Assembly (NCBI GenBank): GCA_964428655.1
Contig: CAYRYE010000001.1
Location: forward strand, 312,406 to 376,405
DNA: 64,000 bases
Direction: 5' to 3'
Source: an uncultured Gammaproteobacteria bacterium
Lineage (GTDB): Bacteria; Patescibacteriota; Microgenomatia; UBA12405; JAHJSD01
Shown: positions 7 through 62,631 of the stretch, piece after piece
How positions within the stretch are numbered: the first letter of the stretch is position 1
How the letters are laid out: each line of letters begins with the position of its first letter
Notes under the pieces: generated by a model
Databases searched by the model: none
What the model was told of the DNA's origin: nothing
Seen by the model: only the letters and a program-made list of their open reading frames with translations
Translations under genes and position numbers: made by a program

Positions 7-957
7 ATGGCCCGGATAATTAAGCGTATTAATTCAGGCTTTGACTGTTTTATCAAGGATAATCCCCAATATCGTTCCAGCCAACGGGCTTTTGCCATTA
101 ACGCCACCCCTTTTTCTTTTATTAGAAATAAAGAAGGTCGGTTTTATGGCGGGGGACAATCGGTAAGAACCTTTCATGTTCATTGTTTTTTAATGCCTGG
201 GAAATTAAAAAAAATTGAGCTTCCGGAAGAAAAAGCCCCGTTAGTTTATCCCACGACTTTTTCTTTGGCATTGTTTAATCTGATTTTCAACTCCGAAAAG
301 ATTCATCAGGCTATTTTTGCCGGCAAAGAGGAGGAATTTAAAAGCACTAAGCGAGGAGTCGTTTTTAGCTGGAAAGGTGGTTTAGAAGATTTAGTTTCAA
401 TTCTAAATGAAATTGACGAGATTTTCTATAAGCTTCAGTTGAGCTTGATTTTTGCCTTTTATCAGGATGGTCAGAGTTTTTTGGATAAATTGGCAGATTT
501 TATGACCGTTGATTATTTAGAAAAAATTAAGGAAAAAAGAGAAAAATTGGTTTTATTAGGCAAGGAAAGGGGATTAGAAGAAGCCAGAATTCTGTTGACT
601 AGAGAACTTTTAAGATTAGGGGAAGGTTATAAAGTTAATTTTTCCAAAAGGAAAATAGAGAAGATTTGTCAACATTTGACTTTAGACCAAAACGGCGATC
701 TTTCTTCTTGGGTTGGAAACAAAATAGTAGTTTTAAGGCCGGGAATGGGTTATGGCTGTTTTGTGGAGATATTTGGTAGTAAACTCAGCATTCATCTGTC
801 GCCTCTTGATTCCCTTTTTCCGGAAGGAACTATGGAATCAACGGGGTTTTTGTTTGTGAAGAAGATCAAAATTGAACAAAAACCGGCTTGGTTAAAGAAA
901 TTTCTTGATTGTTTTCAATCTTCTTGCCCTTCTTGTTCTTTACTCCACCGAGGTTGA
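7..957 (+). CDS. hypothetical protein; the frame is open to the window edge and may start upstream
   Basis: Long ORF with protein-like composition; I recognise no motif; converges on the minus-strand ABC transporter cluster. Confidence 0.3.
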   Translation: MARIIKRINSGFDCFIKDNPQYRSSQRAFAINATPFSFIRNKEGRFYGGGQSVRTFHVHCFLMPGKLKKIELPEEKAPLVYPTTFSLALFNLIFNSEKIHQAIFAGKEEEFKSTKRGVVFSWKGGLEDLVSILNEIDEIFYKLQLSLIFAFYQDGQSFLDKLADFMTVDYLEKIKEKREKLVLLGKERGLEEARILLTRELLRLGEGYKVNFSKRKIEKICQHLTLDQNGDLSSWVGNKIVVLRPGMGYGCFVEIFGSKLSIHLSPLDSLFPEGTMESTGFLFVKKIKIEQKPAWLKKFLDCFQSSCPSCSLLHRG

Positions 958-57015: not shown

Positions 57016-58098
57016 TTAACGGTACGGCGTCCAATCGGCGATGGGAGCGGTGTTGTAGGTGATAAAATTAATGGCATAGAGATAAATAGCCGGCAGAATA
57101 AGCAGAAATATTATTTTAAACTCTTTCTTTCTTAGAAAGCTGGAAAAGGCAATAATCCAAAAAGGATAAAGAGGAGCTGAATAACGTGAAATATCCCGAT
57201 GGGCTATGAAAATTGTGGCCAAGTAAAAGACAGTTGGGAAAAGCGCGATAATATCGGTTTTGTATTTTTTAATTAGATAAACAACGGCCAAACCTCCAAG
57301 CAGATAAATATAGATAATGTCTTCCAGCCAAAAGTCTCCCAGCCAAGAACGAGAACTGATAAAAGTTTGGAATGGAGTAAAGGTCAGATGGAAATTATCG
57401 CCTGAATGAAAATAGGCCCAGAAGTTGCCGGCTTGTTGTCTAAACAACCAGAAGATCGGCAAAACAGCTAAAGGGCCTAGAAATAATGGCCATTTTTTGA
57501 ACCATTTTTTAATTTGAAACTTATCATGTATTAATATATGCAAACCAAAGGCAACAGATAATAAAATGGCCGGGGTTTTTATTGTTTGGGCGATTGCCAA
57601 GAATATTCCTGACCATAAGAATTTATTTTTTCTAAAAAAGAGGATTGATAAAAGTATTGTGCTTGTGAATAAAGCTTCTGGAGACCCCACGCTTCTCAAG
57701 ATAAAATTTCTGGCTGGCAAGAAGAGTGAAATAGTTGATAACCAAAAAGAATTTTTAATTTTCAATTGATTGAGAAGCAGATAAAAAGCAGTGACCGTGA
57801 TCCCAGCGCCAATTAAATTAACTAACAGCATTGCCCACCAGCCGGGTAAAAATTTGTCGAAGATAGAAATCAGAAAAGAATAGCCGGGAAAATGAGCGGG
57901 ATAGTATTCAAGAGGCAGGGGAAGAGAGAAGTTTTTCCCGATGCAATCTTTGTTATACCAGCATTTAGCGATGATAATATAATTAGGGCCGTCGTAATTA
58001 GAGAAAATTTTATCCATCCGCTTTGCCTGATTAAAAGGAAGCCAGACTAAAACAGTAGAACTAATGGTAATTAACCAAAGAAAAAGGATTTTTTTCAC
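57016..58098 (-). CDS. polytopic membrane protein, putative GT-C-fold glycosyltransferase (same family as the partial gene at 62629)
   Basis: 11 or more TM segments; shares the P..Y.P..P.Y first-loop motif with the 62629 gene. Confidence 0.4.
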   Translation of the reverse strand: MKKILFLWLITISSTVLVWLPFNQAKRMDKIFSNYDGPNYIIIAKCWYNKDCIGKNFSLPLPLEYYPAHFPGYSFLISIFDKFLPGWWAMLLVNLIGAGITVTAFYLLLNQLKIKNSFWLSTISLFLPARNFILRSVGSPEALFTSTILLSILFFRKNKFLWSGIFLAIAQTIKTPAILLSVAFGLHILIHDKFQIKKWFKKWPLFLGPLAVLPIFWLFRQQAGNFWAYFHSGDNFHLTFTPFQTFISSRSWLGDFWLEDIIYIYLLGGLAVVYLIKKYKTDIIALFPTVFYLATIFIAHRDISRYSAPLYPFWIIAFSSFLRKKEFKIIFLLILPAIYLYAINFITYNTAPIADWTPYR

Positions 58099-58150
58099 GC
58101 CTTATGTATGATAACATAACTAGTAGTTAGTGGTTAGTGGCTAGTAGTTA

Positions 58151-58861
58151 GTGAAAAAACATTTAGTTTCTGAACTTTCGGTTTTCTTTCCTGCTTATAA
58201 TGAGGAAAGAAACATTAAGCAAACAATTTTGGAGGCGATTTTTGTTCTCAGGGAAATTACTCCTAAATGGGAAATTTTGGTGATCAATGATGGTAGTACT
58301 GATAAAACCGGCGAAATTATTGAGGATTTAATCAAAAAACACCCAGAAATTAGAATGGTTAGCCATAAGCCAAATAGAGGTTACGGAGCTGCTTTAAAAG
58401 CTGGTCTTTATGGCTGTCAATATAAATGGATTGCTTTTACTGATGCTGACGGCCAGTTTAATTTTAAAGGAATTTACCACTTTATTGATACTGCCCAGCG
58501 TGAAAAGGCTGATTTGGTGATTGGCTATCGCTTTAAACGACAAGATTCAATAGTGCGGCTTTTTATTGCTTTTTTATTGAAAATTTGGAATTTTGTTTTT
58601 TACCGTATTTGGTATAAGGATGCTGATTGCGGCTTTAAATTAATTAAAAAAGAAGTTATTGATGAAATACCAAAACTGCAAACAGAAAGCGCTATTACTG
58701 AGACTGAATTTTTAATTCAAGCTAAAAAGGCAGGTTTTAAAATTATGGAAATTGGTGTTAAGCACTATCCTAGGATAGGGGGTAAATCAACAGGTGGCGA
58801 TCCTAAGGTTATTTGGAAGGCGGCAAAAGAGAGTTTTAAGTTATGGAAAGTACTCCACTGA
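58151..58861 (+). CDS. GT2 glycosyltransferase (Dpm1/ArnC-like polyprenol-phosphate sugar synthase)
   Basis: LSVFFPAYNEE, VINDGSTD, FTDADGQ (DxD). Confidence 0.75.
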   Translation: MKKHLVSELSVFFPAYNEERNIKQTILEAIFVLREITPKWEILVINDGSTDKTGEIIEDLIKKHPEIRMVSHKPNRGYGAALKAGLYGCQYKWIAFTDADGQFNFKGIYHFIDTAQREKADLVIGYRFKRQDSIVRLFIAFLLKIWNFVFYRIWYKDADCGFKLIKKEVIDEIPKLQTESAITETEFLIQAKKAGFKIMEIGVKHYPRIGGKSTGGDPKVIWKAAKESFKLWKVLH

Positions 58862-60345
58862 GAAATCTTAAATCTCAAATCCTGAATCTCAAAAGAATAT
58901 TCTTTAGAGATTTTTTCTTGGTGTTGATTTTACTTTTGGCTGCCTTTTTAAGGCTCTATCGAATTTCTGGCCAGATGGAGTTTTTGGGTGATCAGGGAAG
59001 GGACGTTCTTATCGTTCAGCGTTTTTTAAAAAAAGGCGACTTGATGTTTATTGGGCCCCAAACTTCGATTGGCGGCATGTATTTGGGACCCTGGTATTAC
59101 TACTTAATGGCCCCAGCTCTACTTTTAGCCAATTTTAACCCTGTTGGCCCGTCAATAATGGTGGCCCTAATTGGAGTGGCTACTGTTTGGCTGGCCTATA
59201 AGGTGGGAAAAGAATGGTTCAATAAGGAAACCGGTGTTTTGGCCGCTTTGTTAACAGCCATTTCTCCAGTAATAGTTTATTATTCAATTTTTTCTTGGAA
59301 TCCCAATGTAATGCCTTTTTTTGCCCTTTTATCAATTTGGCTTACTTGGCGAATTTGGCAGAAAAATGAATTCAAAAAACTTCCTTGGCTGGGGTTTTCT
59401 TTGGGGATGGTTTTGAATTCTCACTACTTGGGGCTGCTGCTTCTACCACTGGTTGCTTTTTTTTGGTTCTTAGCTCTGAAAAAAAATTGGCACAAAAAAA
59501 CCCAGAAACACTTCATACTTCATACTTCATACTTCATACTGATTTTGTTTTTCCTAATGTCCCCTCTGATTTTGTTTGACCTAAAGCACGACTTTCTCAA
59601 TTTTAAGGCTTTCAAACAATTTTTTATGATTAGACAAACTACTGTTAATCTTAAATTCTATAAAGGGTTTCTTAAGTTGCCAATAATTGTTAGTCAGCTT
59701 TTTGCTAATTTGTTGGCAGGAAAAGATTATTTGGCAGGCATCTATTGGTTATTGCTTTTTCTGGGTCTTGGAATTTGGAAATTAAGAAAAAATAAAAATC
59801 TGTGGTTTATATTGGCTTGGCTTTTGGTTGGAATTTTGGGGATATCTAATTACAAACAGCATGTTTTTGCCCATTATTTTGGTTTTTTGTGGCCGGTAGC
59901 AGTTTTGTTAGCCGCTTTATTTTTAAAAAAAACTCTTCCTTTTAGTCTGCCAATTATTGCTTACCTTGCTTGGCTGAGTTTATCAAATTGGCACGGTTGG
60001 CAGCCGGCTAATTCTCAGTTAAAACGAGCTAGAGAAGTCTCTGATTTCATTTGTCAACAGACGAAACAAGCTGAAAAATATAATATAGTTAATCTGGCCG
60101 CTTATAATGACTTTAGGGCCATGCCATATCGTTATTTTTTAACAAAGGATTGCCCCCGACCAGTAATGGTCGATACTTCCTATCCTGATGCCCGTTCCCT
60201 TTATGTGGTTCAGGAAGATCCAAGTAAATATCCTGATCCTGTTGGCGCTGATGTTTGGGAAATTCAATCAGGCGGCAATTGGGAAGTTGAGAATGAGTGG
60301 GTGGTATTCGACACTAAGATTTATCGATTAACAAAAAAGGGATGA
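58843..60345 (+). CDS. GT-C membrane glycosyltransferase (ArnT/PMT-like, COG1807 type)
   Basis: 12 or more TM helices, conserved first-loop region GDQGRD...; contains the (CTTCATA)4 repeat. Confidence 0.6.
   Translation: MESTPLRNLKSQILNLKRIFFRDFFLVLILLLAAFLRLYRISGQMEFLGDQGRDVLIVQRFLKKGDLMFIGPQTSIGGMYLGPWYYYLMAPALLLANFNPVGPSIMVALIGVATVWLAYKVGKEWFNKETGVLAALLTAISPVIVYYSIFSWNPNVMPFFALLSIWLTWRIWQKNEFKKLPWLGFSLGMVLNSHYLGLLLLPLVAFFWFLALKKNWHKKTQKHFILHTSYFILILFFLMSPLILFDLKHDFLNFKAFKQFFMIRQTTVNLKFYKGFLKLPIIVSQLFANLLAGKDYLAGIYWLLLFLGLGIWKLRKNKNLWFILAWLLVGILGISNYKQHVFAHYFGFLWPVAVLLAALFLKKTLPFSLPIIAYLAWLSLSNWHGWQPANSQLKRAREVSDFICQQTKQAEKYNIVNLAAYNDFRAMPYRYFLTKDCPRPVMVDTSYPDARSLYVVQEDPSKYPDPVGADVWEIQSGGNWEVENEWVVFDTKIYRLTKKG
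59511..59538 (+). repeat. perfect heptanucleotide tandem repeat (CTTCATA)x4 inside the GT-C gene, preceded by A8 and A7 tracts
   Basis: cttcatacttcatacttcatacttcata; encodes HFILHTSYFIL. Confidence 0.9.
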
Positions 60346-61115
60346 AGAAGGTTAAAAATATTTATCTTTCGATTACTATTCCCTGCTATAACGAAAAAGA
60401 GAACTTAAAAAGAGGTGTTTTGAGTGAGGTTTGGAAATATCTTAAGAAACAGGATTATTCTTGGGAGGTAATTGTTTCTGATGATGGTTCTACTGACGGG
60501 AGTTTAAAGCTTGTCAGAAGTTTTGCGCGAAAACACAAGGGCTTCAGGGTCTTAGAAAATAAACACAAAGGCAAGCCTTGGGCGCTTTGGCAGGGAATAA
60601 AAGCAGTTAAAGGAAAGTATATTTTGTTTGCCGATATGGATCAATCAACTCCGATTGATCAGCTTGGTAAGCTTCTTTCTTGGTTGAAAAAGGGGCATGA
60701 AGTGGTGATTGGCTCAAGGGGAATAGAGCGAAAGAATTTCCCTTTTTTTCGCAAAATTGGAGCAGCGGTTTTTAGAAATTTCAGGAAATCACTTCTTTTG
60801 CCACAAATAAACGATACCCAGTGCGGATTTAAATTGTTTAAAACTAAGGTGGCAAAGGAGATTTTTCCTAAATTGGAAGTTTTGAAAAAACATGGTTCCG
60901 GCTGGACAGTTACTTCGTACGATGTCGAACTCTTGTTTATTATTGATAAGTTGGGCATTAAGATAAAAGAAGCGATTGTTGATTGGGAGGATAGGGATGT
61001 AAGTTTAGGGAAGGGAAAAAGTTATATTGCCAGGTATTTTAAAGAATCAAAAGAAATGTTTGGGCAAATTTTGAAAGTCAAACTAAATGATTGGCAGGGG
61101 AAATATGATGAATAA
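60342..61115 (+). CDS. GT2 glycosyltransferase (Dpm1/ArnC-like)
   Basis: ITIPCYNEKEN, VSDDGSTDGS, FADMDQS (DxD). Confidence 0.75.
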   Translation: MKKVKNIYLSITIPCYNEKENLKRGVLSEVWKYLKKQDYSWEVIVSDDGSTDGSLKLVRSFARKHKGFRVLENKHKGKPWALWQGIKAVKGKYILFADMDQSTPIDQLGKLLSWLKKGHEVVIGSRGIERKNFPFFRKIGAAVFRNFRKSLLLPQINDTQCGFKLFKTKVAKEIFPKLEVLKKHGSGWTVTSYDVELLFIIDKLGIKIKEAIVDWEDRDVSLGKGKSYIARYFKESKEMFGQILKVKLNDWQGKYDE

Positions 61116-62631
61116 AAAAATTACAATTGGTAATTTCCAGTTTGCCGTTTACCATCTTTTTATTTTCCTTCTCATTATCTTTCTCTACTTTTTTACTCGT
61201 CTTTATCATTTGACTGCTTTGCCGGTTTTTTGCGATGAGGCGATCTATGTTCGCTGGGCCCAAATTATGAAAAATGAGCCTAGTTTGAGATTTTTGCCTC
61301 TTCAGGATGGTAAACAGCCGCTTTTCATGTGGCTGGTGATACCGGCTCTGGAGATATTTCATGATCCGCTTCTTGCCGGACGGATGGTTTCTGTTTTTGC
61401 CGGTTTAGCCACTTTGATAGGCATGGTTGTTTTACCGATTATCATGAATCGATTCATCGCAATTGGTTTGATGAGCGGATTATTGTATGTTTTAGCGCCG
61501 TTTACTTTATTTTTTGACAGAATGGCTTTAGTTGATAGTCTCCTTTCCGCTTTTGGGATTTGGTCTTTGATTTTGGCAATATTGCTGGGCCGGTACAGAA
61601 GGCTTGATTTGGCGATGATTTTGGGAATGATATTGGGTGGAGCAATGCTGACTAAAAGTCCTGGTCTTTTATTTTTGGCCATGAGCTTGCCAGTCTCTTT
61701 TATATTTATGATTAAAGGAAAAGAGAAAAAAGATAGTTTTTTCCTTTGGGGATTAAAGAGCCTTAGTTTATTGGGGATCAGTTTGTTTTTTGCCTTCGGG
61801 ATTTATAATATTCTTCGTCTGGGGCCAAGTTTTCACATGATTGCCATTAGAAACAAAGACTATGTCTGGCCAATTGCGGAAATAATTAAACATCCCCTAG
61901 ATCCTTTAAAGCCTCATATTAAAGATGTTCTCCGTTACTATTGGCATTATTTAACTCCCCCTTTTATAATCTTGGGGTTGATAGGAATTTTATCAGTTAA
62001 AAAAGATCTTATTTTTCTTTTATTAATTAGCTGGTGGCTTTTGCCTTTATTGGGACAGAGCGTTTTTGCCAGGGTTTTTACTGCTCGGTATATTTTATTC
62101 AGCCTTCCCGTTTTTCTGTTTTTTATTGCTGTTTTCACTGCCAGAATTTGGGATTTTGCTAGGGAAAAGGTGGGTAAACTGGCCTATCTTCTTCTTTTTC
62201 TTTTAATCCCGGCATTATCTTTTAATTGGCGGCTTTGGCGTGATCCGGTTAAAGCCCCATTGCCTAAAGATGAACGGGCTGGTTATTTGGAAGATTGGAC
62301 TGCCGGACAAGGGATAAGGGAGATAGCCGATTATTTGAAAAAAGCGCCAAGAGAGCAGGGGATTGTTGTGGGAACAGAAGGCCATTTTGGCACTCTGCCT
62401 GATGGTTTACAGATTTATCTTGAGGGAGAAAAAGATATTACCGTCCTCGGCATTGGGCATCCAGTCAATAAAGTGGCTGATCCCTTGGTTGGATCCAGAA
62501 AAGCAGAGAATAAGGTTTATTTGGTTGTTAATCAAAGCAGGTTTCAAATGATTGACAAAAATGAACTGAGTTTAATTAAAGGATATGAAAAACCAGGAGG
62601 AGATAAGTTGTTATTTTTTGAAGTTCTATGA
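61087..62631 (+). CDS. GT-C membrane glycosyltransferase (ArnT/PMT-like)
   Basis: 13 or more TM helices; N-terminal loop with CDEAIYVRWA; coupled to the upstream GT2. Confidence 0.55.
   Translation: MIGRGNMMNKKITIGNFQFAVYHLFIFLLIIFLYFFTRLYHLTALPVFCDEAIYVRWAQIMKNEPSLRFLPLQDGKQPLFMWLVIPALEIFHDPLLAGRMVSVFAGLATLIGMVVLPIIMNRFIAIGLMSGLLYVLAPFTLFFDRMALVDSLLSAFGIWSLILAILLGRYRRLDLAMILGMILGGAMLTKSPGLLFLAMSLPVSFIFMIKGKEKKDSFFLWGLKSLSLLGISLFFAFGIYNILRLGPSFHMIAIRNKDYVWPIAEIIKHPLDPLKPHIKDVLRYYWHYLTPPFIILGLIGILSVKKDLIFLLLISWWLLPLLGQSVFARVFTARYILFSLPVFLFFIAVFTARIWDFAREKVGKLAYLLLFLLIPALSFNWRLWRDPVKAPLPKDERAGYLEDWTAGQGIREIADYLKKAPREQGIVVGTEGHFGTLPDGLQIYLEGEKDITVLGIGHPVNKVADPLVGSRKAENKVYLVVNQSRFQMIDKNELSLIKGYEKPGGDKLLFFEVL

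Follow-up and report, generated by a model that had tools for sequence, protein, structure and literature searches.

Transferases for lipooligosaccharide, capsule and protein glycosylation are known to undergo repeat-mediated phase variation in Haemophilus, Neisseria, Campylobacter and Pasteurella. Heptanucleotide tandem repeats are also found in heterocystous cyanobacteria, whose short tandemly repeated repetitive (STRR) sequences are mainly intergenic, G+C-rich and dispersed genome-wide; STRRs are not known to be linked to frameshifting in glycosyltransferase genes. Here, we describe a perfect array of four heptanucleotide units that lies 670 nucleotides (nt) into the gene of a predicted GT-C fold glycosyltransferase, GTCa, in a 64,000-nt stretch (referred to as the window) of contig CAYRYE010000001.1, assembly GCA_964428655.1, from a member of the Patescibacteriota. 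We read the array as a conserved, slippage-prone coding microsatellite that would act as a low-frequency on/off switch of this one surface glycosyltransferase, a proposal that in our judgment has an even chance of being correct.

Several described systems resemble parts of this arrangement. With the pathogens named above, the locus would share slipped-strand mispairing in a coding repeat that toggles a glycosyltransferase and diversifies surface glycans, which is here a proposal (PMC6321876, PMC9176279, PMC8437040). The switched enzymes of those pathogens are mostly cytoplasmic GT-A/GT-B transferases whose poly-G/C or tetranucleotide tracts lie close to the 5' end of the gene, whereas the present heptamer lies far inside the gene of a GT-C membrane enzyme. 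Heptamer loci have been described in Haemophilus influenzae, namely, (TGAAAGA)n in the hmw1A/hmw2A promoter, (AATTTTG)14 in the hmw1A open reading frame (ORF) and (AACAACC)n in the gene of a TonB-dependent receptor (PMC2651432). The likeness extends to the 7-nt unit, to its place in the promoter or ORF of surface-related genes, to the effect of a unit change on expression or frame and to the occurrence of frameshifted alleles in some strains. However, the H. influenzae arrays have about 6 to 38 copies, a number that differs between nearly all strains, while we found four in every intact orthologue. The array described here is, furthermore, located mid-gene in a transmembrane helix and belongs to a free-living or episymbiotic lineage of Patescibacteria rather than to a host-adapted pathogen. 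The gtrABC module of Salmonella and phage P22 likewise joins a GT2-type synthase of polyprenyl-phosphate sugars to a membrane transferase by which a surface polymer is modified on the extracytoplasmic side, is phase-variable and occurs in several paralogous copies, but its phase variation is epigenetic, through Dam methylation and OxyR at the promoter, and not due to repeat slippage (PMC2909390, PMC3688519). With the cyanobacterial STRRs, finally, the locus shares a lineage-characteristic excess of 7-nt tandem repeats.

The array in the window and in its orthologues

A preliminary description of the window, made from its letters without database searches, had reported a heptamer repeat in frame within the gene at 58843-60345 (+). 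Both the sequence (CTTCATA x4 at 59511-59538) and Tandem Repeats Finder (TRF) confirm this; the TRF call at 59510-59540 has period 7, 4.4 copies, 100% matches and a score of 62, the highest among the tandem repeats of the window. No other perfect repeat (at least three copies of a unit of 2 to 12 nt) occurs in the 64 kb, and no further heptamer array was found in an extra 6 kb of the source contig outside the window. The sequence matches itself at offset 7 over 24 consecutive positions, compared to 8 to 9 for the other offsets from 4 to 10, and in 100 first-order Markov simulations no run exceeded 13. So perfect an array lies well outside chance expectation. The window belongs to contig Ga0309839_1000004 (428 kb) of the Joint Genome Institute (JGI), which contigs from two further JGI samples match at 100% identity over 5 to 7 kb. 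Given that identical DNA was recovered in three samples, the array is not an assembly artefact.

The peptide encoded by the array, HFILHTSYFIL, corresponds to about residues 222-233 of the enzyme and forms the first turns, or N-terminal part, of transmembrane helix 221-248 in an AlphaFold2 model. As in contingency loci, the repeat is a perfect tandem array in a reading frame, with a unit not divisible by 3. Simulated changes of -1, +1, -2 and +2 units lead to a stop after 230, 247, 240 and 237 residues, while changes of three units in either direction keep the frame and give proteins of 493 and 507 residues. The preliminary expectation that gain or loss of one unit, or of one A in the adjoining A tracts, would truncate the transferase therefore holds in simulation, at 230 to 247 residues. 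It had also been suggested that a unit change might join the gene to the alternative ORF at 59385-59579. Alleles with one unit more or two units fewer do enter that frame, but what they gain is a 12-residue nonsense tail, DFVFPNVPSDFV, followed by a stop.

Arrays of about four heptamer units are found at the same codons in orthologues from at least 12 related Microgenomates/Shapirobacteria-like lineages, as seen in the homologous 28 to 31 nt extracted from the DNA by codon anchoring. The sequence of the unit is lineage specific (TTCATAC, TCTATAC, TTCAGTA, TTTTTAC or TCTTTTC; see Table 1, where W stands for the window sequence and L numbers for orthologous loci of relatives). An alignment of 34 homologous proteins contains no indel and no length difference at the array site, showing that the array has not made this segment longer. 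An offset-7 score of at least 17/21 was reached at the site in 7 of 164 loci, as opposed to 0, 0, 1 and 0 loci for offsets 5, 6, 8 and 9. The units can also differ between close relatives: across the gene, L085 and L169 share 97.5% identity, yet 4 of 28 array positions differ.

To separate periodicity in the DNA from periodicity in the peptide, we kept each of 25 peptides fixed and redrew the codons from the usage of the gene itself. This resampling yielded p < 0.05 for 14 sequences, among them 12 of the 13 with a visible NNNATAC-, TTCAGTA- or TTTTTAC-type array, with p values of 1.5e-4 for the window, 5e-4 for L084, 5e-5 for L087, 2e-4 for L004 and 3e-4 for L007. Relatives without a visible array were mostly unremarkable, although L027 and L014 were significant all the same. 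The periodicity at the site hence exceeds what the peptide requires. Codon choice points the same way: in the genes, ATA accounts for 18.5% of the Ile codons and TAC for 24.6% of those for Tyr, but the arrays contain hardly any others for these two residues. Comparison of the window with L084, L088 and L167 showed third positions at identical residues to be 48 to 52% identical, which is near saturation, whereas 27 to 30 of 33 array positions agree in these codons. Such a high identity is expected if the units are homogenised, given that each unit position is nonsynonymous in some copy and none can drift freely. Lineages with other units encode very different peptides at the site (FSIQYSIFSIL, FLLFTFYCLL and FFLFSFFSFLSF), which indicates that the repeat shapes the peptide and not the reverse.

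A search for truncated homologues with the N-terminal 230 residues as query, some of whose hits lie on long contigs, retrieved an allele that lacks one unit. In L170 (European Nucleotide Archive ERZ27247850, 622-kb contig), the gene is split exactly at the array into 228 and 287 residues. The distance from a conserved Phe to a conserved Met is 38 nt in this locus and 45 nt in 34 of 34 aligned homologues. When one TCTTTTC unit is put back, a 518-residue ORF without stops results, which aligns without gaps to 7 intact relatives at 50 to 88% identity. Compared to intact L174, from the same sample and 85% identical in DNA, L170 displays a clean 7-nt gap within the array, and its two halves contain no further stop codons. 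As judged from these sequences, unit-sized slippage evidently occurs at the site and the resulting off allele can dominate a population, which does not imply that the change is reversible.

Heptamer arrays elsewhere in the glycosylation clusters

To see how heptamer arrays are distributed, we scanned 1.22 Mb of orthologous loci, together with the window, for arrays of at least 3.5 copies at a threshold of at least 90%. Period 7 yielded 23 arrays, against 7, 4, 4 and 0 for periods 5, 6, 8 and 9. GT-C coding sequence, which makes up 44.5% of the DNA scanned, contained 17 of the 23; the other 6 immediately preceded a GT2 gene or fell at a GT-C gene junction, and none lay in GT2, housekeeping or other coding sequence of the 1.22 Mb. 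Several arrays recur at the N terminus of GT-C genes, namely, (AATTTTC)n in L004, L027 and L130, (ACAAATT)5 in L164 and (AAATTTC)4 in L086, and all of them are in frame with an upstream ATG. At the N terminus of GTCa, perfect arrays are present in L130 and L164 and a decayed one in the window; at that of GTCb, the GT-C enzyme of a second glycosyltransferase pair downstream, a perfect (AATTTTC)n occurs in L004 and L027 but not in the window. In total, the window contains one perfect and two decayed heptamer arrays, all within 1.5 kb. The AATTTTC arrays of L004, L027 and L130 are perfect, have 3.4 to 4.4 copies, belong to different GT-C paralogues of different genomes and encode an N terminus of the FSIFNFQFS type; in the window, NFQF is specified at the corresponding position (61130-61141) by other codons and without a repeat.

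A further site of heptamer arrays is the presumed 5' untranslated region of GT2a, the family-2 glycosyltransferase encoded directly upstream of GTCa. The divergent intergenic region contains a palindrome-like motif with the consensus TATGATA(A/T)CATA, which we found in 12 of the 15 intergenic regions of relatives that were inspected (L004, L007, L014, L022, L027, L084-L088, L167 and L169). In relatives, the spacer from this motif to the GT2a start codon measures 27 to 93 nt and holds arrays of 0 to 6.4 copies, both varying together; in L014 there is an array on the membrane-protein side of the motif instead. Judging by its sequence, the motif is probably a back-to-back pair of -10 elements or an operator; a simple sigma-70 scan did not flag it at 58107-58118 of the window.

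Taken further, these distributions raise the possibility that heptanucleotide microsatellites in 5' untranslated regions, at GT-C 5' ends and at one conserved mid-gene site serve the Microgenomates group of Patescibacteria as contingency loci that switch GT-C glycosyltransferases, with the mid-gene array held at four units and homogenised by repeated loss and regain in the course of a long evolution. We put forward this wider proposal tentatively and would rate its chances at somewhat below even.

A proposed low-frequency switch and its rivals

If the array acts as a switch, its four identical units would misalign during replication so that one unit is lost or gained. Since 7 is not a multiple of 3, translation would then stop at residues 230-247, leaving the N-terminal half of the GT-C enzyme only, and the sugar decoration by the GT2a/GTCa pair would be lost in this off state until a second slip restored four units. 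Repeated loss and regain would copy neighbouring units over each other, making them alike within and different between lineages. Provided that only the four-unit length suits the transmembrane helix, every intact gene would be left with four units. We infer the reversibility of the change, its rate, a selective benefit (such as escape from phage or host recognition) and the decoration of a surface polymer by the enzyme. The proposal of a phase-variation switch, made in the preliminary description, has thus survived in part: lineage-specific units, excess periodicity and the 7-nt deletion of L170 speak for slippage at the site, while the three assemblies fetched are identical and the predicted variants are absent from the proteins on record.

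A number of observations weigh against the proposal and against a classical, high-frequency switch. The GTCa protein is recorded on four contigs, and the three that we fetched, each from a different sample, are 100% identical in DNA. The comparison of copy numbers proposed beforehand speaks against a switch in this organism, with four units in all three assemblies and none of ten predicted variant proteins found by exact look-up among 15 billion proteins. Truncated alleles were likewise missing from the clusters (90% identity) to which ten close homologues belong. The number of units is four in every intact orthologue. Published cut-offs for predicting the Campylobacter phasome are at least 5 units, for units of at least 4 nt, and at least 10 bases for poly-A/T (PMC6321876), and established heptanucleotide switches of H. 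influenzae have 13 to 38 copies (PMC2651432), in comparison with 4.4 units and tracts of eight and seven A here. With only four units, switching may therefore be rare. The one unit-sized indel allele found, that of L170, came from a search that selected truncated proteins, and it could be an irreversible pseudogene. Among 167 loci not chosen for truncation, no frame break was found between the two halves of the gene, indicating that off alleles are uncommon in consensus genomes. The background for the enrichment of heptamer arrays was limited to the orthologous loci and the window. The A8 and A7 tracts, which the preliminary description had counted as part of the switch, are ordinary Lys codons of an A/T-rich genome. 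Finally, the lesions of three other broken genes (see next paragraph) have nothing to do with the heptamer.

In these three genomes, the same GT-C gene is split in L171 (325-1994), L172 (4001-5543) and L173 (4001-5576). We rejected them as heptamer off alleles: L171 and L172 are frameshifted within the A-rich loop, and L173 carries an unrelated deletion just after MSPL. The frameshifts of L171 and L172 could be sequencing errors, the contig name of L172 pointing to long reads, whose assemblies often contain homopolymer errors; alternatively, the three loci could reflect repeated gene loss.

Two further searches bear on the range of sequences available for comparison. A flank-anchored pattern allowing 2 to 6 units matched nothing in metagenome contigs, the source contig included, and is thus uninformative about the organism. 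A second metagenome scan for related loci returned relatives at 52% identity or less only; the nearest other homologue of GTCa is about 65% identical in protein sequence.

The main rival to a low-frequency switch is a nonadaptive mutational hotspot, an array that undergoes slippage, with slippage or template switching keeping its units alike, but that has not been selected as a switch. It would then persist because T-rich heptamers happen to encode an acceptable transmembrane peptide in three frames, and frameshifts would be deleterious or neutral losses. We regard this account as a serious possibility, if a rather doubtful one. The low copy number, the lack of variation in this organism and the rarity of off alleles in consensus genomes all agree with it, and all array units found are T-rich, with peptides rich in F, L, I, S and Y. 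Moreover, the gene is broken by unrelated lesions in other lineages, suggesting that it is dispensable and occasionally lost. However, coding repeats prone to frameshifts are normally purged, while this array has been kept at one site across synonymously saturated lineages. Other arrays are located at GT-C 5' ends or upstream of glycosylation genes, where contingency loci typically lie, and were absent from the remaining gene classes that were sampled. The absence of additional stop codons from both halves of L170 also argues against a hotspot of this kind.

A second rival holds that not the heptamer but the A8/A7 tracts are the effective switch, by one-base slippage, which we consider improbable. 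A simulated one-base change in either tract does lead to a stop, at 232 or 245 residues, and L171 and L172 are frameshifted in the equivalent A-rich loop. The tracts belong to the Lys-rich loop KKNWHKKTQKH, which precedes helix 221-248 and is found at residues 215-220 in the model, and AAA Lys codons in an A/T-rich genome account for them. They are not special, given that the window contains 86 A or T runs of at least 7 bases, or about 1 per 750 bases, and both fall under the poly-A/T cut-off of 10 (PMC6321876). The frameshifts of L171 and L172, in addition, could be sequencing errors, as noted above. The tracts are thus possible but weak candidates for secondary slippage sites.

We think it very unlikely that the array is a cis-acting element such as an iteron, an internal promoter or an RNA structure. 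Its conserved position and the constraint at the DNA level would suit such a role, but lineages differ in the unit, and a binding site would need coevolution to tolerate this. A sequence scan of the array region detected no promoter-like or terminator-like site, and the predicted RNA of the region has less structure than its shuffled controls (z = +2.55). The view that the periodicity is a by-product of protein selection on F-I-L-H/Y-T-x-Y-x-I-L, without slippage, can draw on the similar peptide of several orthologues and the invariant length of the segment but is largely refuted by the codon resampling with fixed peptides (rejection in 14/25 sequences), the near-invariable use of the rare codons ATA and TAC in the arrays, the quite different peptides of the TTCAGTA, TTTTTAC and TCTTTTC lineages and the existence of a 7-nt indel allele.

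The gene cluster and what a switch would mean

The assignment of GTCa to the GT-C transferases, already made in the preliminary description, is upheld by a match to Pfam PF13231 (PMT_2) over residues 83-237, with 61.3 bits against a cut-off of 26.1, and by structure prediction. An AlphaFold2 model built with 34 homologues has a mean predicted local distance difference test score (pLDDT) of 89.3 and a predicted template modeling score (pTM) of 0.89. Its top Foldseek matches in the PDB are to ArnT (5F15/5EZM; E value of 4e-8, template modeling score of 0.60), followed by AglB, STT3, ALG12, PglB and Pmt; a PDB search by sequence, with a family profile, gave no match, so that fold comparison alone succeeded. 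On the strength of this model, GTCa is assigned a multi-pass GT-C membrane fold and grouped with the ArnT/PMT-like enzymes (CAZy GT39/GT83-type). Its homologues carry the NCBI name "glycosyltransferase family 39 protein," and 34 of 34 of them retain D50 and D54 of the invariant motif EFLGDQGRD, candidates for the acidic residues expected in the first extracytoplasmic loop of such enzymes.

GT2a resembles polyprenyl-phosphate sugar synthases, with all matches under the curated cut-offs, and is presumed from its sequence to supply the lipid-linked sugar donor for GTCa. The GT2a and GTCa genes overlap by 19 nt (58843-58861), GTCa and GT2b by 4 nt (60342-60345), and GT2b and GTCb by 11 to 29 nt depending on the start codon (61087-61115). 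These successive overlaps suggest translational coupling, in which case a frameshift stop in GTCa could also alter downstream expression. The divergently transcribed 360-residue membrane protein weakly matches a family for the formation of cell-surface glycopolymers. Synteny of the five genes extends to relatives under the labels Candidatus Shapirobacteria, Collierbacteria, Woesebacteria, Microgenomates or Patescibacteria. A third and later GT-C-like ORFs downstream, which have no Pfam match, are candidate paralogues. A few kilobases upstream there is a GT2-GtrA fusion gene, and no GtrA-only flippase gene adjoins the GT2a/GTCa pair.

Some relatives have extra glycosyltransferase genes, GT-C at most of these loci, inserted between GTCa and GT2b (Table 1), so that the number of transferase modules varies by lineage. 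Two proteins from one 90% cluster of the L007 lineage, P0022 and P0128, have about 98% identity in residues 1-345, beyond which they are strongly divergent. Their C-terminal ~135 residues are of two types ("YNIVNLASY.." versus "FALALLAE.NYD"), both of which occur across the family alignment, a pattern that indicates a cassette-like recombination of the C-terminal domain, as far as can be told from the sequences. Many public bins that carry a cluster of this Patescibacteria type bear the title "uncultured Gammaproteobacteria" or "uncultured Pseudomonadales," and single bins are titled Candidatus Methanoperedens, Aenigmatarchaeota or Bathyarchaeia. The bins so titled, whose records include loci L005, L006, L009, L014, L016 and L080 and proteins P0218 and P0259, are likely mislabelled or contaminated.

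Table 1. Coordinates and repeat units of the features discussed. Positions without a locus number refer to the window.
Feature	Position	Strand	Remark
Perfect heptanucleotide array (TTCATAC)x4 plus 3 nt	59510..59540	+	Proposed slippage site
A8 tract	59479-59486	+	AAA AAA Lys-Lys codons, Lys-rich loop
A7 tract	59494-59500	+	AAA AAA Lys-Lys codons, Lys-rich loop
GTCa, 500-residue GT-C fold glycosyltransferase (PMT_2, ArnT/PMT-like)	58843..60345	+	Gene that would be switched
GT2a, family-2 glycosyltransferase, PpgS/ArnC/AglJ-like	58151..58861	+	Resembles polyprenyl-phosphate sugar synthases
Second GT2 + GT-C pair	60342..62631	+	GT2b 60342-61115, GTCb 61087/61105-62631
360-residue membrane protein, divergently transcribed	57016..58098	-	Syntenic cluster member
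Palindrome-like motif TATGATAACATA	58107..58118	.	Divergent intergenic region, 360-residue membrane protein/GT2a
Imperfect heptamer array TAGTAGT TAGTGGT TAGTGGC TAGTAGT TAGTG	58121..58153	+	Presumed 5' untranslated region of GT2a-GTCa
Decayed heptamer array GAAATCT TAAATCT CAAATCC TGAATCT	58863..58893	+	N terminus of GTCa
Arrays with TAGTRRY-like or AATTTTC units	L088 2165-2204; L014 3204-3248 (membrane-protein side of the motif); L022 3251-3280		Presumed GT2a 5' untranslated region
Further arrays with TAGTRRY-like or AATTTTC units	L065 3226-3251; L004 about 225-260		Presumed GT2a 5' untranslated region
AATTTTC arrays	L004 5912-5941; L027 6219-6242; L130 2935-2966		N terminus of GT-C paralogues
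Inserted glycosyltransferase genes	L004 2888-5120; L085 6524-7981; L086 3858-5222; L169 7629-10647; L167 7467-10682		Between GTCa and GT2b
W units			TTCATAC x4
L084 units			TTCATAC TTCATAC TTTATAC TTCATAC
L167 units			TATATAC TGCATAC TATATAC TTCATAC
L087 units			TTTATAC TCTATAC TCTATAC TCTATAC
L004 units			TTCAGTA TTCAGTA TTCAATA TTCAGTA
L007 units			TTCAGTA TTCACTA TTCACTA TTCAGTA
L086 units			TTTTTGC TTTTTAC TTTTTAC TGTTTAT
L174 units			TTTTTTC TCTTTTC ATTTTTT TCTTTTC
L085, L169, L088, L120, L142, L157			Decayed arrays at homologous site

In full-text literature searches, we came across no publication that connects phase variation with Patescibacteria or the candidate phyla radiation. If the array is a switch, repeat-based phase variation would have its first described case in the candidate phyla radiation, and one of an unusual form, with a 7-nt unit in four copies, located mid-gene in a transmembrane helix, fixed in position and with turnover of its units. 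Such a switch is directly testable in existing metagenomic reads, via alleles of 3, 4 and 5 units. The deep conservation of position, combined with lineage-specific units, also makes the locus a clean natural case of concerted evolution of a coding microsatellite under protein constraint in three frames. Patescibacteria have tiny genomes, few regulators and an episymbiosis that depends on the cell surface, and besides diversity-generating retroelements their surface variation is largely unknown. If our proposal is true, they would share with small-genome pathogens a bet-hedging device against recognition by phages or hosts.

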